Below, piece after piece: positions 8,775 through 56,605 of a stretch of DNA of 64,000 nt. This stretch comes from Octopus vulgaris (lineage: Eukaryota): the NCBI GenBank assembly GCA_951406725.2, contig OX597816.1, forward strand, positions 70,990,001-71,054,000, in the 5' to 3' direction. Each line of letters begins with the position of its first letter. Positions within the stretch are counted from its first letter, which is position 1. The translations under genes were made by a program, and so were the position numbers. A model generated the notes under the pieces. The model had not been told where the DNA came from and did not search any database. It saw only the letters and a list, made by a program, of their open reading frames with translations.

Positions 8775-9010
8775 TTAAGCAGGACCTAGCACTCCGTCGG
8801 TTACGACTGCCAGGGTACCAGTTGATCGAATCAACGGAACAGCTTGCTCGTGAAATTAATCAGCAAGTGGCTGAGTATATCACAGACATGCGTACTCTTA
8901 AAATAGTTCTCATGGAGATTCAGTATGACACAGAATGTAACAAGGCTACCCCATTGAATTACGAGTACAACTCATTTTTGCTAGCTGAGTGGAGTGAAGC
9001 AACGTGAAAT
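8775..9010 (-). mobile_element. SINE family B, 3' part
   Basis: Reverse-complement similarity to 41455-41680. Confidence 0.75.
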
Positions 9011-9600
9011 TTTCCTAATTATGGCTCTCAGCTGGGTATAAAAAATAGTTTTATCTTCATCACAACTAGTCAAAGTAGGTACACAGGCACTTATTAGAGT
9101 AGCAAGCCGCCCACCTTTCAGGTGAAATCGTAGAGTCATTAGACGTTCATTTATAGGAACAGGAAGCTCCTCCGACTTCTTAAGGATATCAGATCGAACT
9201 GCAAAGCCAACACCAGCTTCTCTGCCCTCCTCCTTCAGCTTCACCTTCCAAACAAACGTGAATCCACCCCATACTTCCTCAAGCTGACCATCACCTTCTG
9301 TACGAGTCTCTGAAAGTGCGGCTATTTCAATGTTATAGCGGTTCAATTCGCTAGTAACAAGTGCAGTACGTCTTTGAGACCTACAATCACTCTTGTTATC
9401 CAATAGAGCGCGCAAATTCCAGCATGAAATGTTCAAGTTTCATTCAGATTTTGTAAACGAAGTCTCTTTGTTTTTCGAGCGCAGGGTGGACATCTGTCAG
9501 TCGCTTTAAACTGACCAGATATAGAAAGACAGGCAACTTTTGGTTCACCTTTTCTAGAACCTCCCCAACCTCCGGGTGAGCAGTGCCCTCAGATACCCAA
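9010..9600 (-). mobile_element. RTE-clade LINE 5' end: UTR plus AP-endonuclease N-terminus (truncated)
   Basis: ORF 8981-9436 ISCWNLRALLD...RRTALVTSELNRYNIEIAALSETR...GVGFAVR...INERLMTLR...TLISACVPT, typical of RTE APE domains. Confidence 0.9.
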
Positions 9601-12011: not shown

Positions 12012-12986
12012 AGAGAGTTAGAGGTTGTGAATCCAACTAACTAAGGGATAGTATCTATCCAATATACAACTGGTAGAATACCTAATTAATACACAAGTGT
12101 TAGTTATTGCGTGGCAATTACCCTACTGAGTATAATAATTAAGCGAGGGTAATAAGTGGTTTGGAATATATGTCGGGTTCTTTTGGGGGAAAAATGAATC
12201 TCGACCGCTCATAACAAAGCTAATTTTAAAATAAATCACTCATATTTTATAAGAGACATTTTAAAAGAAAGTACATATATACAAAAGAGGCCGATAGAAT
12301 AAGTACTAAGCTTACAAAGAATAAGTCCTGGGGGCGATTTGCTCGACTAAAGGCAGTGCTCCAGCATGGCCGCAGTCAAATGACTGAAATAAGTAAAAGA
12401 GTAAAAGAATATATGTTTGTATGTATGTATGTATGTATATATGTATGTATGTATGTATGTATCAGCTTAAGACCAGTTTAAACATGTATGAAAGATATTT
12501 GAACCTGTAAAATCTTTACATTCAGTTTAGTATGGAGAGAAATATCCCGTTTGCGATAAAAAGGTGTTAAAGCACCACAGTCGTCTCAAAATGCTCTCTG
12601 TTGGAGTGATGAGTGCATTTCGAATTTGTTTGCTCACTTCAGCACCAGCTACCAAGAGAAGTAACTCCGCGTTGGTTAATAAGAAAAGCTTCCTTTACCA
12701 TTGATCAGTATATAATATTTATAGATTGTGTGTGATTGGGCCTGAATAAATACGCGAGTGGATATACGACACAGTGAAGGAAACTATACATAAAACCAGT
12801 TCAAGTATGTTTGAAATATATTTGAACCTGTAAAGGCTTTTCACTGCAGTTCGTCTCTCTCTTCGTATCTGGTGCTGAAGAGAACAAACAAATCCGAATT
12901 GCATTCATAAGTGCAATAGAGAGCGCTCTGAGCAAACCATTGTGTTTTAAGCGACAATTTGCTTTCATTTTGTTTCAGCTAATTGA

Positions 12987-13145
12987 ATAGATTTAACACC
13001 TTTTACTTCCTAATGGCTTTGGAGTGTACTGACACTGTGGAGTGACTGACAATGTGGAATAGATTTAACACCTTTTACTTCCTAATGGCTTTGGAGTGTA
13101 CTGACACTGTGGAGTGACTGACAATGTGGAATGACTGACACTGTG
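12987..13145. repeat. 72-bp tandem duplication with internal ~15-bp subrepeats (gactgacactgtgga)
   Basis: aatagatttaacacc...gacaatgtgg occurs twice in direct succession (12987, 13059). Confidence 0.9.
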
Positions 13146-23570: not shown

Positions 23571-23581
23571 AATAATAACAA

Positions 23582-23970
23582 TCCTTTCTAATATAAGCGC
23601 ACTGAGATGGGCGACGATTACATCAACATGAGTGCTTAAATGGTCTTTATCTTATCGACCCAGATAGGATGAAAGGCAAAGTCAACCTCAGCAGAATTTG
23701 AACTCAGAACATACAGCCAGAAATGTTCTTTAGCATTTTGTCCAATGCACTAACGATTCTGCCAGTACATAGCCTTAATTAATGAAATGATTTATAAATT
23801 GATAATGATCCTTTCTACTATAGTCATAAAGTCTGAAATTTTTGTCGCAGAGTTGGGGTGTTAGTCGATTACATCGACCACAGTGTTCAATTGGTACTTA
23901 TTTTATCGATCACGAAAAAATAAAAAGCAAAGTCAGTCTCAGCGGAATTTGAACTTAGAACGTAAAGACA
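23582..23970 (-). mobile_element. Two decayed SINE family M copies
   Basis: ggatgaaaggcaaagtcaacctc..gaatttgaactcagaac and a second similar unit at ~23810-23970. Confidence 0.7.
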
Positions 23971-31185: not shown

Positions 31186-32511
31186 GAAGGAAGGAAGAAA
31201 TAGAGGAACGAATAAGATGAAGGAAAACAAGAAAAAGAAAGAACAAAAAAAGCAGTAACAGAAAAAAACGAATAGACGGGAAGCTTTCGACAGACGATGT
31301 GCTTGAGTGCGGCGTGTGTGCGTCTACGTGAAAAGATAAGTCTGTAGATTGCTGATGATAAAAAGATGGCGGTATTAGCGTTGGTTGTTGGCGCAAACAT
31401 AATGTAAGAAAAGTAAATAAACAATTTTAAGGAAAAAAAACAAAAAAACACTCAGACACGGGAATAATAAATACACCCATTCGCCATTTTTTTAATGTTA
31501 CCTATACCGAGACGTCAGTAATTATAGAATCCCTGCAACAAAAAGTCAAATTAGAAGAAAAAAATTCACTGTGCAAGTGAATTCTAAACCAATAGAACAA
31601 GTTGTGATTCATTCATTAGACCGAAACATCGTCTTTTTCTCTTCTTTTCTTCCTTTCTTTCTCTCTCTTGTTTACCGCTAAAGCTACATCCATTCATCAG
31701 ACACGGGTCCATTTTCTTTTAACAATATATAAACGTATGTAAATCAAGCCTCAGAAAATTACTCTGAGCGAGTCGGATTATTATTTCTATTATTATTCAC
31801 CGCGTTGTGTGAAATCCACGTAAGGCTTTCACTTGCGAGTTTGTCCAAAATGTTTACTTAATGTGACTTCGGTAATTCCAATTTATTTTTAGTGCTTACT
31901 TTTCTTTTTTTTTTTCTTTTTTCCGAAAGTGACCAAGCATCCGTCGAAGTCATCACCTTCTGCTTTCAATGAAGAATAATCTTCTAAGCTCCCTCCCAAA
32001 ATTTCTCGCTTTAAAACTTTTAGTAATTAAATCAAAAAAAGAAAAAAAAAACTAAACAAAGAAAGCGAAGTTGATTTAAAGAGGGATCAGGGTACGGCGG
32101 AGGAACATCTGAGACAATCTGGAGCCTCTAGATATTTGTTAGACCTGCTAGAAATAGCAACCAAATTCTCTTAAGTCACATCCAGTCGCCTGAAAATATA
32201 CACAGACATGCTGATCAACGCATATAAAAGCTCTTCGTACTTCAATTACACCGTTTGCGAGCAATGATATTTGCGTATCTTTTAAGGATACATTCAGAGG
32301 GAGATGTGCAATACCTGTAAGCCTTGCCAGCATTTCTATGACCAGTTTCAGAAAGCAAGAGTTGGCCCTACTTCTTGCAATATCTTGAGCTCTGCTACTG
32401 ACACTTAAAAGCCGGATGTTAATCAGGAGTAAAAGTTTAAATTTACTATTGTCTCGGGAAACAGAAAGATAAGTCTACTAATAATATCGCTTGTGGTATT
32501 ACTGCAGATGA

Positions 32512-33081
32512 CGCCGGGCGAAATGCTCGGCAGTATTTCATCTGTCGCTATTCAGAGTTCAAATTCCGCCGAGGTTGACTTTGCCTTTCATCCTTTCGGG
32601 GTCGATTAAATAAGTACCAGTTACGCACTGGGGTCGATATAATCGGTTTAATCCGTTTTTCTGTCCTTGTTTGTCCTCTCCGTGTTTAGCCCCTTGTAGG
32701 TAGTAAAGAAATAGGTATTTCGTCTGTCGTTACGTTCTGAGTTCAAATTCCGCCGAGGTCGACTTTGCCTTTCATCCTTTCGGGGTCAATAAATTAAGTA
32801 CCAGTTACGCACTGGGGTCGATATAATCGACTTAATCCGTTTGTCTGTCCTTGTTCGTCCTCTCTGTGTTTAGCCCCTTGTGGGTAGTAAAGAAATAGGT
32901 ATTTCGTCTGTCGTTACGTTCTGAGTTCAAATTCTGCCGAGGTCGACTTTACTTTTCATCCATTCGGGGTCGATTAAATAAGTACGAGTTACGCACTGGG
33001 ATCAATATGATCGATTTAATCCGTTTATCTGTCCTTGTTTGTCCTCTCTGTGTTTAGCCCCTTGTGGGTAGTAAAGAAATA
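32512..33081 (+). mobile_element. Head-to-tail trimer of SINE family M (alternative tail), 184-bp period, 17-bp TSD
   Basis: gagttcaaattc at 32555, 32739, 32923; ggtattactgcagatga at 32495-32511 and 33082-33098. Confidence 0.9.
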
Positions 33082-33205
33082 GGTATTACTGCAGATGATA
33101 TTAACTTCTTTCAGCCAACTTAATACTACCACCTAGCATCTTGGGTGCATTTAGCGAAGTCCACTCTGCAGCATTCATTTGGGCTAGGTCTTCAGTTTGA
33201 GTCTG

Positions 33206-33263
<58 letters not shown>

Positions 33264-35244
33264 CTGTCTGTGAGTCCCCGAATAGGATAATAATCGGTAC
33301 CTACTCTATTGACTCAGATATAAAAAAAAAAGTGGACTGCGGCTTTACCACTGCTAATCTCTTCACTACCGCCAACCCCTCACCTCTACTGATTTTAACA
33401 ACAGTATTTTCCCACGTCTAGCAATGAATGTAACGACAGAGTTGCAAGTACCGTCCTTTCTGAGACCTAATAAATTGGGCAAGGAACAAAAACAATAATC
33501 CTTGAGACTATGAGAAGCCTGTACGCAGTTATTCGACTTTCTGGAGATAACAGTTGAATTCCCTTACATCACATCCAATCGTCTGAAAGTATGACGGACG
33601 TGTTGGACAATCCTCGGTCAAAGCTGGCCAAAAGTTAAACAACAACAACAAAACTGTAAAAGCTGGCTCATTTACCAGAGCTGCAAGCAAGTATCTTACG
33701 AAAATATGAAAAAGTAAATGAAATAAGCAAGGAAGCTTGTCTCGTAAAATAGCTGAAAAGCATTCGTTGCACTTCACGCTGAAATTGTAGACCAAATAAG
33801 CCTACAAGCAATCATGGATAAATGCTTCAGAAAGAAGACCAGATGACTGGAGAACTTCATGCAGTTTCATGCAAAGAAGTGCTTGCAAAGTATCTGGGCG
33901 ACATACACGCCCATGGATTTTTATAGCGATAAAGATTTTACTCTCATTTCCATTTACATGTTCTAGCAAGTTGTGAATGTGACTTTGAGAGATGTGTCAC
34001 TGGCGATAAACAACTGAGAGTTATGAGACGAAGATGTGTCGGAAGAACAGCATATGATATTAGAAATTTTAATAAAAGGTTAAACCATGAAAACTTATCA
34101 GAGATTGACAGCAAAATTCGAGTGCAGATCGTACCAGAAAAATTTGAAAATTTCAACCACATAGAACTACCAAAGGTAAACCCATGTAGCAAGTAGCTAT
34201 TTTTAAATAAGTGCGCCAATTTGTGGTAGCTGGCAATATGACGTAATGTCGTATTGCCGAAGAAATATTATTGTCGTTTTTCCATTGGTTAATATAACTG
34301 CTCATATAGGATTTCTAAGAATTAGTTAAAGAATATTTGTATGTAATTTCGATTCTTTAAAGTCAAGTTGAGCAGTTATAAAAAACCCTGGATTTTGGGA
34401 AAAACTTCAGCGTTTGTTGGATGTAACTAAACTCCACGACACTCACTCCTTTGAGACATTGGTGATTTTTCATGCCATGTCCAAGGAAAATTCAACAAGT
34501 CTTGTTTGAATTGTTGAGATTTAATATTAGCTGAAATGAGAAATTAGTTAGTTAAAATATATAGTCGTAATTCTCTACGACGAAATTTACTTTTCTTCAA
34601 AATGTATATAATATAAAAATGCTATATGTATATAATAAAAATTAATGTAGAAAATGTTTTATCTTTCTTCACGTTCTTCAACTATATATAAAATGTATTT
34701 CTGTAATTATTAAACTGCATTTTTTTTTATAGCGGTTAAAAGAACACGAAAATATATTTAACATACATGCCCGCTAATGTTCGTTAGCGTTCCAGAAAGT
34801 ATATTTCTCCATGGCGTTTATATAGCTGTAGTTAGAAATGACGAATAATAACACTTATGTAAGTTATAAGTGGCGGTTTTATCATTATATATCCTTACTT
34901 TAAAAGCTAAATTATTTTATCTATTTCCAAATAGAAAACATAATAAGTAGCGTTGCATTAACTGTAAACAAACTAACTAGAAAATATACGCTATAATATA
35001 TAACGAAAGAGAAGCATGGTTGCTTAAACCGCTATACATACAACAATTTGTAGTAAAGGAAATAAGACTCAGGTTCCACATATGTGGTAGCACCAATTAT
35101 CTAAGGACATTCTGTTGACAGTAAATGCAAAATAAAGAAAAGCTCGTGCTGTTGCAAATACCACAATAATACAAAACATCAGTTGTAGCACTGCCATCAA
35201 TGCGATTCGTATTCCGAAATTAAAACAGCTGTAACTAAACCTCG

Positions 35245-36440
35245 GGTGGGGGTTACTTGTTTACATTGACATCAGTGTTTAACTGGCACTTATTTTATCG
35301 ATTTCAACTGAATGAAAGGCAAAGTCGGACTCGGCATAATAATTACCACCAAGCATTTTGCCCGATGCACTAACGATTCTGCCAGCTCACCGCCTTAAAA
35401 ACAACAGCAATAATAATGATTTCAAAATTTGGCTCAAGGCCGGCAATTTTGCGGGAGGAGATAAGTCGATTACATCGACCCCAGTGTTCAGCTAGTATTT
35501 ATTTTATCGTCTCTGACAGGATAAAAGGCAAAGTTGACCTCGGTGGAATTAGAACTCAGAAAATGAAGACGGACGAAATACCTATTTATTTACTACCCAC
35601 AAGGGGCTAAACACAGAGAGGACAAACAAGGACAGACAAACGGATTAAGTCGATTATATCGACTGGTACTTATTTAATCGACCCCGAAAGGATGAAAGGC
35701 AAAGTCGACCTCGGCGGAATTTGAACTCAGAACGTAACGGCAGACAAAATACTGCTAAGCATTTCGCCCGGCATGCTAACGTTTCTGACAGCTCACCACC
35801 TTTACAACAACAATAATAATATTTTCTACAATAGATACAAGTCTGAGTTTTTTTTCTTTTTTTCATGAGGGCGGGGGGATGTCTAGCCGGTTATATCGAC
35901 CCCAGTAATGAACTGGTACTTATTTCATCGACTTCGAAAGATGAAAGGCAAAGTCAGCCTCGGAGAAATTTGAAATCAGAACGTATAGACGGAAGAAATG
36001 CCTCTAAGCATTTTGTCCGCCACTCTAAGGTTTATGTCAGCTTTCTACCTCAGAATGGTTTCAAGTTATGACACAAGACTGGTAATTTTGAAAGAAGAGA
36101 AATGAATTACATCAACCCCAATATATGACTGGTACTTATCTTATAAACTTATAAAACTCGGTGGAAATTAAACTTAGAACGTAATGCGCCAGAAAAAATG
36201 CCGATAGAATTTTGCCCGAGGTACTAACAATAATTCTTTTTAATTTTGGCACGGGGTCGGAAATTTTGGGGGAGAGGGGGAAGTCGATTAGATCAATATC
36301 CGTACTTGACTGGTTCTCTATCTTTATTTTATTGATCCTGAAATGATGAAAGATAATGTTGGCTTCGGAAGAATTTGATCTCGGAACGAACAGCCAGAAG
36401 AAATTCCGCAAAGCATTTTAATCTGACGTGCTAACGATTG
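35245..36440 (-). mobile_element. Cluster of ~6-7 same-orientation SINE family M copies of differing divergence
   Basis: Recurrent ctggtacttat...gaaaggcaaagtc...gaatttgaactcagaac blocks. Confidence 0.8.
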
Positions 36441-50134: not shown

Positions 50135-51450
50135 CTAGCAGAATTGCCCGGCGATGCTCGGGGCTGAATTGCTTGAAAGTACTGTTAATGATTGCACTGA
50201 ATTATGATGATTATTCAGGCAAATATTGATATAAGTTTACGGTGGGAGATAAGGACTTAACGATCAAACGTGTGCCATTGCATTGTTTTGGGGGAACCAA
50301 ATTTCTGATGAGCATTATAGGGGCACCAACTTTAAGTTTGAGAATGTGTGGTGGTAGTCCGGGGTGCTCAAAGGAATTGAGTACCTCTATTGGATAGTTG
50401 ATGACGTCCTCTGGGTCAGGAGTTGTATCGATAGACTGATATACATAGACTTCCCCAGGAATGAGTTTTAGCATTTCATCATTAATATGGTGAACAGTTT
50501 TATTCCTCGGGGCCAGAATAGCCCTTTGGCCAATCCAATCCATATTCTGATAATTAGCTTGTAGATCTGGGAACACTGCATCTCTGAGATCAGAAGGCGT
50601 TTTAACAATGGTACAAATGGAATCGATGGCAATATTACCATTTTCATCCCCTGGTATTTTGCCTTCGCCAAGTGCAAGGAGGGTGTGAGGAAATGCTGCT
50701 GATGTGATGTTATGTCGCATATGTGCACGCATATTGGTGTGAAGTTTGAGAGTCTTAACCAGTGGCCACAATGTGGATGACTTAAAACACGCACTTACTG
50801 CATCAGCTGTAGTCCCTTTGGGAATAACGGGAAGTGTTTGTCGGAAGTCCCCTGAAAGAAGAAGTGTTATGCCTCCCATGGGAGGTGAAGAGTGTTTGAT
50901 GTCTCTGAGAGATCTATCTAGTGCCCCAAGAGCACGTCTGTGAGCCATCGTGCATTCATCCCAAACGATAAGCTTGCATCGTCTGAAGACTTCTGCCTGA
51001 TCGGAGCTGTTACTGATGTTGCAAGTTGGTGTCTCAGTCTTCGCTAAGTCAAGTGGAAGCTTGAAAGTGGAGTGAGCTGTCCTGCCGCCTGGCAACAAAG
51101 TAGCCGCAATTCCAGATGATTCCACAGCTAGGGCAATGCCTTGTGTTCGCCTAATCTCAGCCAATATTAATTTGTTGACAAAAGTTTTCCCAGTGCCCCC
51201 AGGAGCGTCCAGGAAAAAAATCCTCCCAGTTTTGGCCCGGACTGAATTAACAACGGAGTTGTAAGCGAACTTGTGTTCTGGAAGGAGCTTTGGCTCATTG
51301 TCGGCTATGTACTCGGCAAGCTCATCAACATTAAAACATGTCTCACGCAGCAAATGTGAAGACAGAGTGTTTGTGCGTTCCTGGTTTGTTGAAGGTAGGT
51401 CATAGACCGGCAAGGCACTACCGCCTATATCAAGTACAGTATCTTCGAAC
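50135..51450 (-). mobile_element. Helitron 3' portion (internally deleted) with intact 3' terminus
   Basis: Minus strand ends CCCGAGCATCGCCGGG hairpin ...CTAG|T at 50135; contains the Pif1-family helicase frame. Confidence 0.9.
50211..51413 (-). CDS. Helitron RepHel Pif1-like helicase fragment (400 aa, no Rep domain, lacks motifs V/VI)
   Basis: LDAPGGTGKTF (Walker A), SGIAATLLPGGRTAHSTFKLP, IVWDECTM, LSGDFRQTLPV, RAILAPRN, GLPPHILKLKVGAPIMLIRNL..CNGTRL. Confidence 0.85.
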   Translation of the reverse strand: MPVYDLPSTNQERTNTLSSHLLRETCFNVDELAEYIADNEPKLLPEHKFAYNSVVNSVRAKTGRIFFLDAPGGTGKTFVNKLILAEIRRTQGIALAVESSGIAATLLPGGRTAHSTFKLPLDLAKTETPTCNISNSSDQAEVFRRCKLIVWDECTMAHRRALGALDRSLRDIKHSSPPMGGITLLLSGDFRQTLPVIPKGTTADAVSACFKSSTLWPLVKTLKLHTNMRAHMRHNITSAAFPHTLLALGEGKIPGDENGNIAIDSICTIVKTPSDLRDAVFPDLQANYQNMDWIGQRAILAPRNKTVHHINDEMLKLIPGEVYVYQSIDTTPDPEDVINYPIEVLNSFEHPGLPPHILKLKVGAPIMLIRNLVPPKQCNGTRLIVKSLSPTVNLYQYLPE

Positions 51451-51499
51451 GTAGTTTGTTACCACACAGCCACACCTGCCCCTATGTATGTGTGTGTGC

Positions 51500-54156: not shown

Positions 54157-54414
54157 TTTGATTCCTGACAGAGATTCATAGACGAAACTTAGCTCATCTG
54201 AAGGCAGGGTCTCTCAGTGTCTTTGATTCCTGGCAGAGATTCATAGACGAAACTTAGCTCATCTGAAGGCAGGGTCTCTCAGTGTCTTTGATTCCTGGCA
54301 GAGATTCATAGACGAAACTTAGCTCATCTGAAGGCAGGGTCTCTCAGTGTCTTTGATTCCTGACAGAGACTCATAGACTAAACTTAGCTCATCTGAAGGC
54401 AGGGTCTCTCAGTG
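54157..54414. repeat. 65-bp minisatellite, ~4 near-identical copies
   Basis: gac(g/t)aaacttagctcatctgaagg at 54181, 54246, 54311, 54376. Confidence 0.95.
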
Positions 54415-56149: not shown

Positions 56150-56605
56150 TCCATGGCCTAGTTTCCATTCGAGTCCTCGTTTCGAATCCCGGTTCCTCAT
56201 TTCGATTCTCTGGGTCGTGTTTCCATTTCTTACATCTCGTTTCGTTTCCTTGGTTCCCGAACCGTTTTCCTGGATTCCGTTTCATTATCCAGGTTCTCGT
56301 TTCGCTTACTTGGATCTCGTTTAGTTTTCCTAATTTTTCGGTTCATTTTCCAGGATCATATTTCGTTTTCTGGTTCTGGTTTCGTTTCCCTGAATTTCGT
56401 TTTCTTTCCCTAGTTTTCGCTTTGTTTCCCTGGTTCTTGTTTCGTTTCCCTGGTTTTCACCGCGTTTTCTTGGATCTTGTTTCGTTTCCCTGGATCACAT
56501 TTTGTTTCCGTAGTTTTTGCTTCGTTTCCCTGGATCCCGTTTCGTTTCCTTGGTTCTCGTTTCGTTTCCCTGGTCATCGTTTCGACTCTTTCGTTCTCAT
56601 TTCTA
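56150..56605. repeat. Degenerate ~20-bp minisatellite (tttcgtttccctggatctcg)
   Basis: Roughly 20 diverged units; explains ORFs 56007-56285 and 56410-56634. Confidence 0.85.

Follow-up and report, generated by a model that had tools for sequence, protein, structure and literature searches.

The 64,000-nucleotide stretch of Octopus vulgaris DNA analysed here (the window) contains three tandem units of a SINE, each ending directly against GGTATT, a motif that the same family carries within its head. This raises the question of whether the SINE chooses copies of its own family as sites of insertion and, if so, what guides it to them. A preliminary description of the sequence had proposed self-targeting by way of a site-specific Tx1 endonuclease.

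The family is a short interspersed non-coding repeat present in many copies. One unit used as a BLAST query gave 17 matches in the 64 kb, and 154,145-270,906 contigs per contig run were placed on the SINE stretch. In an alignment of eight heads from the window, GGTATT occupies head positions 48-53, between a box A-like and a box B-like motif that were located by eye at head positions ~11-21 and ~73-83 and judged against the general box consensus; ARAGORN reported 0 tRNA genes and Rfam gave no tRNA match. The motif is present in the SINE's own head, as the preliminary description held, but not at the head start, where that description had the inner units begin. Instead, the alignment puts the first base of the inner units at head position 48, so that these units lack box A.

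Elsewhere in the window, a 415-residue frame for a Helitron-like PIF1 helicase (50214-51458, minus strand) has its best named matches in Octopus bimaculoides, at 80-81% identity, and Tc1/mariner transposase fragments with HTH and DDE_3 matches lie at 44506-44922 (plus) and 46707-47027 (minus). The window's one fragment of a LINE apurinic-type endonuclease (8984-9439, minus) is unlinked to either of the two SINE tails described below; sequences resembling it fall, among others, into 'craniofacial development protein 2-like' clusters, regarded as RTE-type. Minisatellites are found at 54157-54414 (65 bases), 56234-56584 (20/80) and 12985-13132 (72).

The trimer lies on the plus strand between two exact copies of a 17-mer (32495-32511 and 33082-33098). 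This 17-mer has no third copy on the plus strand of the window and is absent from the minus strand of the whole 64 kb, which rules out a chance origin of the duplication. Between the two copies stand a 20-bp truncated head (32512-32531, head positions 28-47 in the alignment of eight window heads, without box A) and units of 182, 184 and 184 bp, and TRF describes the interval 32533-33087 as a repeat of period 184 with 3.0 copies and 92% matches. This bears out the trimer with a 17-bp target-site duplication as first described, and the length of 184 bp given for all three units holds for unit 2 (32714-32897) and unit 3 (32898-33081), both of which start with GGTATT. Unit 1 (32532-32713), which runs from head position 48 through the box B-like motif and the body to the tail, was shortened to 182 bp by a 2-bp deletion and opens with AGTATT at 32532, directly after the truncated head. 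The trimer is one locus that bears the marks of retroposition, with a duplication matching at 17/17 bases and the first 27 head bases absent, its own box A having been lost through this 5' truncation; both inner junctions are seamless, with no target duplication between units. A contig that covers the 5' flank (X2 record 1) holds the insertion, not an empty allele.

The tail of these units is rare. When its 60 nt were compared with the window by BLAST, four copies were recovered in only two loci, and GGTATT follows directly in 4/4, as the preliminary description had stated, with start positions at 32714, 32898 and 33082 on the plus strand and 35582 on the minus strand; across the whole window, the motif occurs at 2.6e-4 per site. 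Since the 5' copy of the duplication (32495-32511) also opens with GGTATT, the motif was certainly part of the target at the trimer, and the possibility raised beforehand, that it belongs to the element only and is missing from 5' duplication copies, is ruled out at this locus.

Comparison of the three units with one another, as the preliminary description had suggested, gave pairwise identities of 90.7-92.4%. Unit 3 is the most and unit 2 the least diverged (9 versus 2), an inequality that is not significant (p 0.065-0.076). Unit 1 is more divergent in its first 25 bases than in the remainder. Counted over its first 45 bases it has 6 changes, with 5 in the 158 that follow (p 0.016), an excess resembling the one at the second locus described below. 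The units have no private changes in common, the only 2:2 split being a variant that is common in the contig runs, and unit 2 carries at unit positions 78 and 81 (32607 and 32610 in unit 1) a common subfamily variant absent from units 1 and 3. Together, these two observations argue against recent local duplication of one unit, which we regard as ruled out.

The same junction recurs at 35582/35583 on the minus strand, where, as originally noted, the rare tail joins an older copy with a different tail. This second locus (35397-35800) consists of a full-length, old-looking SINE head (35754-35800), a young unit with the rare tail and a 13-bp deletion (35583-35753), and an old body (35397-35582) that starts with GGTATT and carries an ATT/GTT run together with the common tail. 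The rare tail has one substitution within its last nine bases, and the old body differs from the majority of young units at 23/118 bases. CpG sites, assigned by eye from the window copies, are decayed at 5/9 positions in the head plus the 16 bases that open the unit, at 0/9 in the remainder of the unit and at 6/11 in the body that follows (pooled p 0.005). Old-type letters are back by base 12 after the rare tail. We infer that a young copy was inserted at the GGTATT of a pre-existing old copy, and the young-in-old pattern fits such an insertion provided that homology guides the joining of the 5' end. Speaking against it, the upstream part has new-type letters at bases 12 and 16, and an old-type 17-bp duplication is not visible.

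Stacking of SINEs is also seen around this locus. At least six SINEs of differing ages lie head-to-tail on the minus strand at 35150-36420, several of them beginning in the ATT-rich tail of the preceding copy, and a second head-to-tail pair lies at 23580-23970.

Apart from the four rare-tail copies, the readable SINE ends in the window carry the other, common tail, which ends in ATT repeats. When the rare tail was aligned locally with five common tails, the scores were beaten by 1, 4, 12, 32 and 177 of 1000 shuffles, so the two tails look homologous, with weak signal in two of the five comparisons. In the best alignment, GGTATT stands opposite the GG-ATT that opens the repeat of the common tail, GG(ATT)n. 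A hairpin of 4 bp with a 5-base loop is predicted in the rare tail (32873-32885, plus strand, in unit 2); its place and loop are the same in the common tail, where two pairs are swapped on both sides. These paired changes amount to two events between two lineages only, and the rare-tail fold by itself is no better than that of shuffles (z 0.65). Given this match to the 3' end of the sister tail, the motif probably belonged to the RNA end too, besides being in the target. ATT/GTT-rich runs likewise precede 5/8 of the common-type copies examined, several of these runs being the tail of a preceding SINE, and both subfamilies seem to settle at targets that resemble their own 3' end.

To see the junction beyond the window, we used public sequencing runs. 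The region 32417-32746 was covered by reads or contigs of four of the 24 runs listed, and all counts are from three contig runs (X2, X3 and X5) labelled as three organisms. The raw run X23, from which 16 of 12,895,792 reads were placed, was left out of all counts; it shares the species label of the best-matching run, so that label covers unlike genomes. Summed contig depth at 32703-13 and 32714-24, a measure that does not equal copy number and leaves part of the placed records uncounted, was 30.5 and 28.4 million in X2, 30.8 and 29.4 million in X3, and 7.18 and 6.86 million in X5. Depth thus stays level across the tail end, the next bin holding 93-96%, and joints that step back by 184 bases are present in all three contig runs. 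In a simulation of short pieces, which guesses the placement rules, the estimated share of rare-tail ends followed by SINE body was 0.78-1.0, or 0.49-0.72 when the estimate was restricted to the last two bins and tail depth was given an upper bound; model residuals were 0.31-0.58 without such a share and 0.06-0.12 with it. The model therefore suggests that roughly half to most rare-tail ends (0.49-1.0, depending on the model) run into a SINE body, and that, to judge by contig depth, the tail-to-body junction is genome-wide in octopods.

Individual records also show the tail leaving the family. Among the 24 records listed, out of a set with 483,633 more, five continue past the end of the tail for over 100 letters that are unlike the SINE. 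Three of them leave after GGTAT and one after GGTATT (at 32718 or 32719), and one, X3 record 13, ends at 32713 with no letter of the motif. The three GGTAT records are probably one locus, for which the chance is 1.1e-3 per locus. Three further listed records exit inside the tail and are uninformative on the junction, and one X3 row, in which GGTAT and 16 other letters are followed by a truncated copy, could represent a sandwiched duplication.

Searches for antisense pseudo-ORFs over the rare tail gave 1, 1 and 6 matches, some of them annotated in O. bimaculoides; two of the six proved to be unrelated repeats, and P0124 enters the tail beyond the junction. At the five pseudo-ORF junctions of old copies, at most 4, 5, 4, 2 and 4 of the six GGTATT letters are compatible with the translation and never all six, in a comparison in which at least four letters are allowed by 23% of random flanks and the search profile favours matches. 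This may be a sign that GGTATT is less strictly required when copies are older or more distant. One pseudo-ORF from Logan, P0126, spans two diverged units, and in it the rare tail seems to join at approximately head position 16-20 rather than 48, a sequence that may represent a second junction type in a relative.

Taken together, the GGTATT in the 5' duplication copy, the young-in-old structure of the second locus and the frequency of the tail-to-body junction in three contig runs support self-targeting as initially proposed. The attribution of this behaviour to a Tx1 endonuclease has no support in these data: neither the window nor the collections scanned yielded a partner LINE, and in the tail alignment the motif matches the sister tail's end.

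How the trimer itself arose can be considered separately. Most likely it is one insertion of a multimeric cDNA into a non-SINE GGTATT site, the cDNA having come from read-through RNA or from template jumps that would have been primed at GGTATT; template jumping at the motif fits the trimer as well as does the single multimeric event that the preliminary description gave as its alternative. A multimeric insertion is favoured because neither unit 2 nor the majority (consensus) unit has a run of four T and because template jumping can join RNAs, as described in passages of PMC10830420. Stepwise insertion at the site is slightly less probable, since two further hits on one site would be improbable among so many heads, although the ranking of the units, with unit 3 the most and unit 2 the least diverged, is a weak hint in its favour.

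For the family as a whole, we lean on balance towards a mechanism in which the end of the RNA pairs with the target at GGTAT(T) and existing heads are entered. Its first step can be read directly, as the rare tail is joined to GGTATT both at SINE and at non-SINE sites. The RNA would end in, or be read through into, GGUAUU behind the small hairpin, as the weak tail homology suggests, and this hairpin would be of the kind recognised by LINE proteins. A LINE protein would then nick the DNA, the GGUAUU end would pair with the strand freed at GGTATT, and reverse transcription would start there, preferably in older copies; SINE heads would be the commonest and longest match for the RNA end. The sister tail, with its (ATT)n end and its copies often lying behind ATT runs, would follow the same rule that the end matches the target. 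Within a head, the cDNA would join the upstream strand by homology, yielding one head with an extra 184-bp unit, as the age pattern at 35397-35800 suggests, and leaving the second duplication invisible. A stacked locus of this kind would keep the box A of the old copy and the box B of the new one, and since four T never stand in a row in the consensus unit, stacked loci could be read through as multimers. Available parts of PMC10830420 report that human L1 protein in vitro extends 5-nt primers and makes template-jump concatemers. With pairing as the explanation, a Tx1 endonuclease would be unnecessary; the present data fit pairing and endonuclease choice alike.

A more far-reaching form of this mechanism, in which the rare-tail SINE parasitises its sister subfamily in an RNA-guided and self-reinforcing manner with no site-specific endonuclease, is put forward tentatively. 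If true, entry between box A and box B would restore a functional RNA polymerase III promoter that combines the old copy's box A with the element's own box B, every entry would become a new source whose read-through RNA matches the target over a longer stretch, and 184-bp arrays would be seeded genome-wide.

Rather than the RNA end, a site-specific LINE endonuclease of the Tx1, or of the R4/Dong or NeSL type, might pick the site, with the SINE borrowing it. We judge this unlikely. The high share of SINE-body neighbours agrees with endonuclease choice, and precedents exist: in the text of PMC4494074 that was available, 313/347 SINEU-3 copies are flanked by one transposon and the element is tied to Tx1 elements, the accessible part of PMC4640811 mentions NeSL-related families that target tRNA genes, and that of PMC13282606 lists L1-Tx1 and Dong-R4 families as recently active in O. 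vulgaris. Against it, no LINE carrying the rare tail was found, the window copies of the tail being linked to SINEs only and scans for the tail pattern giving 0 matches in viral contigs, metagenomes and prokaryote genomes. Downstream of the nick, the non-SINE target matches the head over only six bases, and upstream of it no motif can be aligned. The alignment of GGTATT with the 3' end of the sister tail also speaks against endonuclease choice, and SINEU tandems retain a duplication between copies that the octopus units do not have.

It is also conceivable, although we consider it distinctly improbable, that existing copies are not targeted at all and that the arrays come from single events, either from a multimeric master or through template jumps, made when the growing cDNA arrives at GGTATT and anneals with the end of a second RNA. 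The outer GGTATT would then be ordinary microhomology. A single duplication pair surrounds all three units, which form a mosaic of subfamily variants at 90.7-92.4% pairwise identity with divergences that are not significantly unequal (p 0.065-0.076), and template jumping has been demonstrated in vitro, according to the excerpts of PMC10830420. Young-type bodies follow the rare tail in 2/3 cases in the window, even though common-type copies are more numerous. At the second locus, however, an old head and an old body surround a young middle (p 0.005), for which a single event would need a chimaeric source RNA.

Duplication at the DNA level, by unequal recombination or by repair copying from another array, with the junction arising once and then spreading, is very unlikely. 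Squamates do commonly show tandem SINE fragments in which one terminal unit is longer (PMC10702118, in the part seen), and arrays of the form TSD-(SINE)n-TSD with head-truncated inner units occur in bivalves (PMC11481361, likewise in part). Here, however, the three units have no private change in common, their only 2:2 split being a common variant, and the trimer shows a 5' truncation and a duplication that is exact over 17 bp. DNA-level copying would also leave unexplained why GGTATT stands at non-SINE sites and why old-type letters return precisely where the second-locus junction lies.

Preference of a SINE for its own head would matter for several reasons. Target-specific SINEs are rare, and those in the literature consulted enter unrelated repeats; a SINE that enters the promoter of its own family would follow a safe-haven strategy, and could let one subfamily take over the sources of another. 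Public octopus assemblies hold tens of thousands of candidate junctions, which makes two questions countable: whether RNA-DNA pairing alone can set the site choice of non-LTR elements, and whether SINE-derived tandem arrays begin by retroposition rather than by recombination.

OR1 and OR2 have their 5' part in common, and the body of the window SINE presumably resembles the CORE domain. As a lead, the family probably is, or stands close to, these OR1/OR2 CORE-SINEs, which it resembles in its octopod host, its great abundance, its putatively tRNA-like head with box A- and B-like motifs and the two tails on one body. OR1 and OR2 are octopus tRNA-derived CORE-SINEs (Ohshima and Okada 1994, cited in PMC4758252, PMC4824008 and PMC5804259), here compared by description only, and the relevant parts of those three papers, unlike the present locus, mention neither tandem units nor target choice. 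In the literature searched, with Repbase, Dfam, the SINEBase supplement and the 1994 and 2015 octopus papers outside its scope, neither this GGTATT junction nor a SINE that inserts into the head of its own family was on record.

Among target-preferring elements, crocodilian SINEU-3, as portrayed in the accessible sections of PMC4494074, is similar in its strong preference for another repeat, its ~16-17-bp duplications, its tandem insertions and its possible co-transcription with the target. It differs in that its target is an unrelated Mariner element, not the family's own head, in its snRNA-derived head and proposed Tx1 partner, and in tandems that sandwich a duplication where the octopus inner units are seamless. 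The same sections call a SINE target-specific when more than 20% of its flanks are one kind of repeat. The corresponding share here is 3/4 in the window and a modelled 0.49-1.0 in the three runs; because a neighbour made in the same event is no target, such shares do not prove targeting.

Tandem arrays of other origins offer further comparisons, those of a clam and of squamates being similar to the trimer in shape. Those of Scapharca broughtonii, in the portion of PMC11481361 available, are alike in having one duplication pair, a headed first unit and later units equally truncated at the head, but they make up ~3% of copies, have truncated inner tails, are put down to unequal recombination and come with no common junction motif in that portion. 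Squamate sSat, as outlined in the passages seen of PMC10702118, consists of tandem 70-290-nt SINE parts with one longer terminal unit, mostly in four or more units, is subtelomeric and is attributed to recombination. Where sSat has at least four homogeneous middle units, the octopus array is short and interspersed, with three units at 90.7-92.4% identity and a target duplication. Jerboa Dip and mouse B2 (PMC8466645) and L1 concatemers (PMC10830420), again going by parts of these reports, share frequent multimers and pairing of the RNA end with a matching target, but insert full-length units into an A-rich tail rather than at a fixed site in the head. The octopus element would work in the manner of other retroposons in which the RNA end pairs with the target. 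Its seamless junctions, and the absence of a partner from the material searched, keep it apart from SINEU-type elements, and it has too few units to be placed with sSat.
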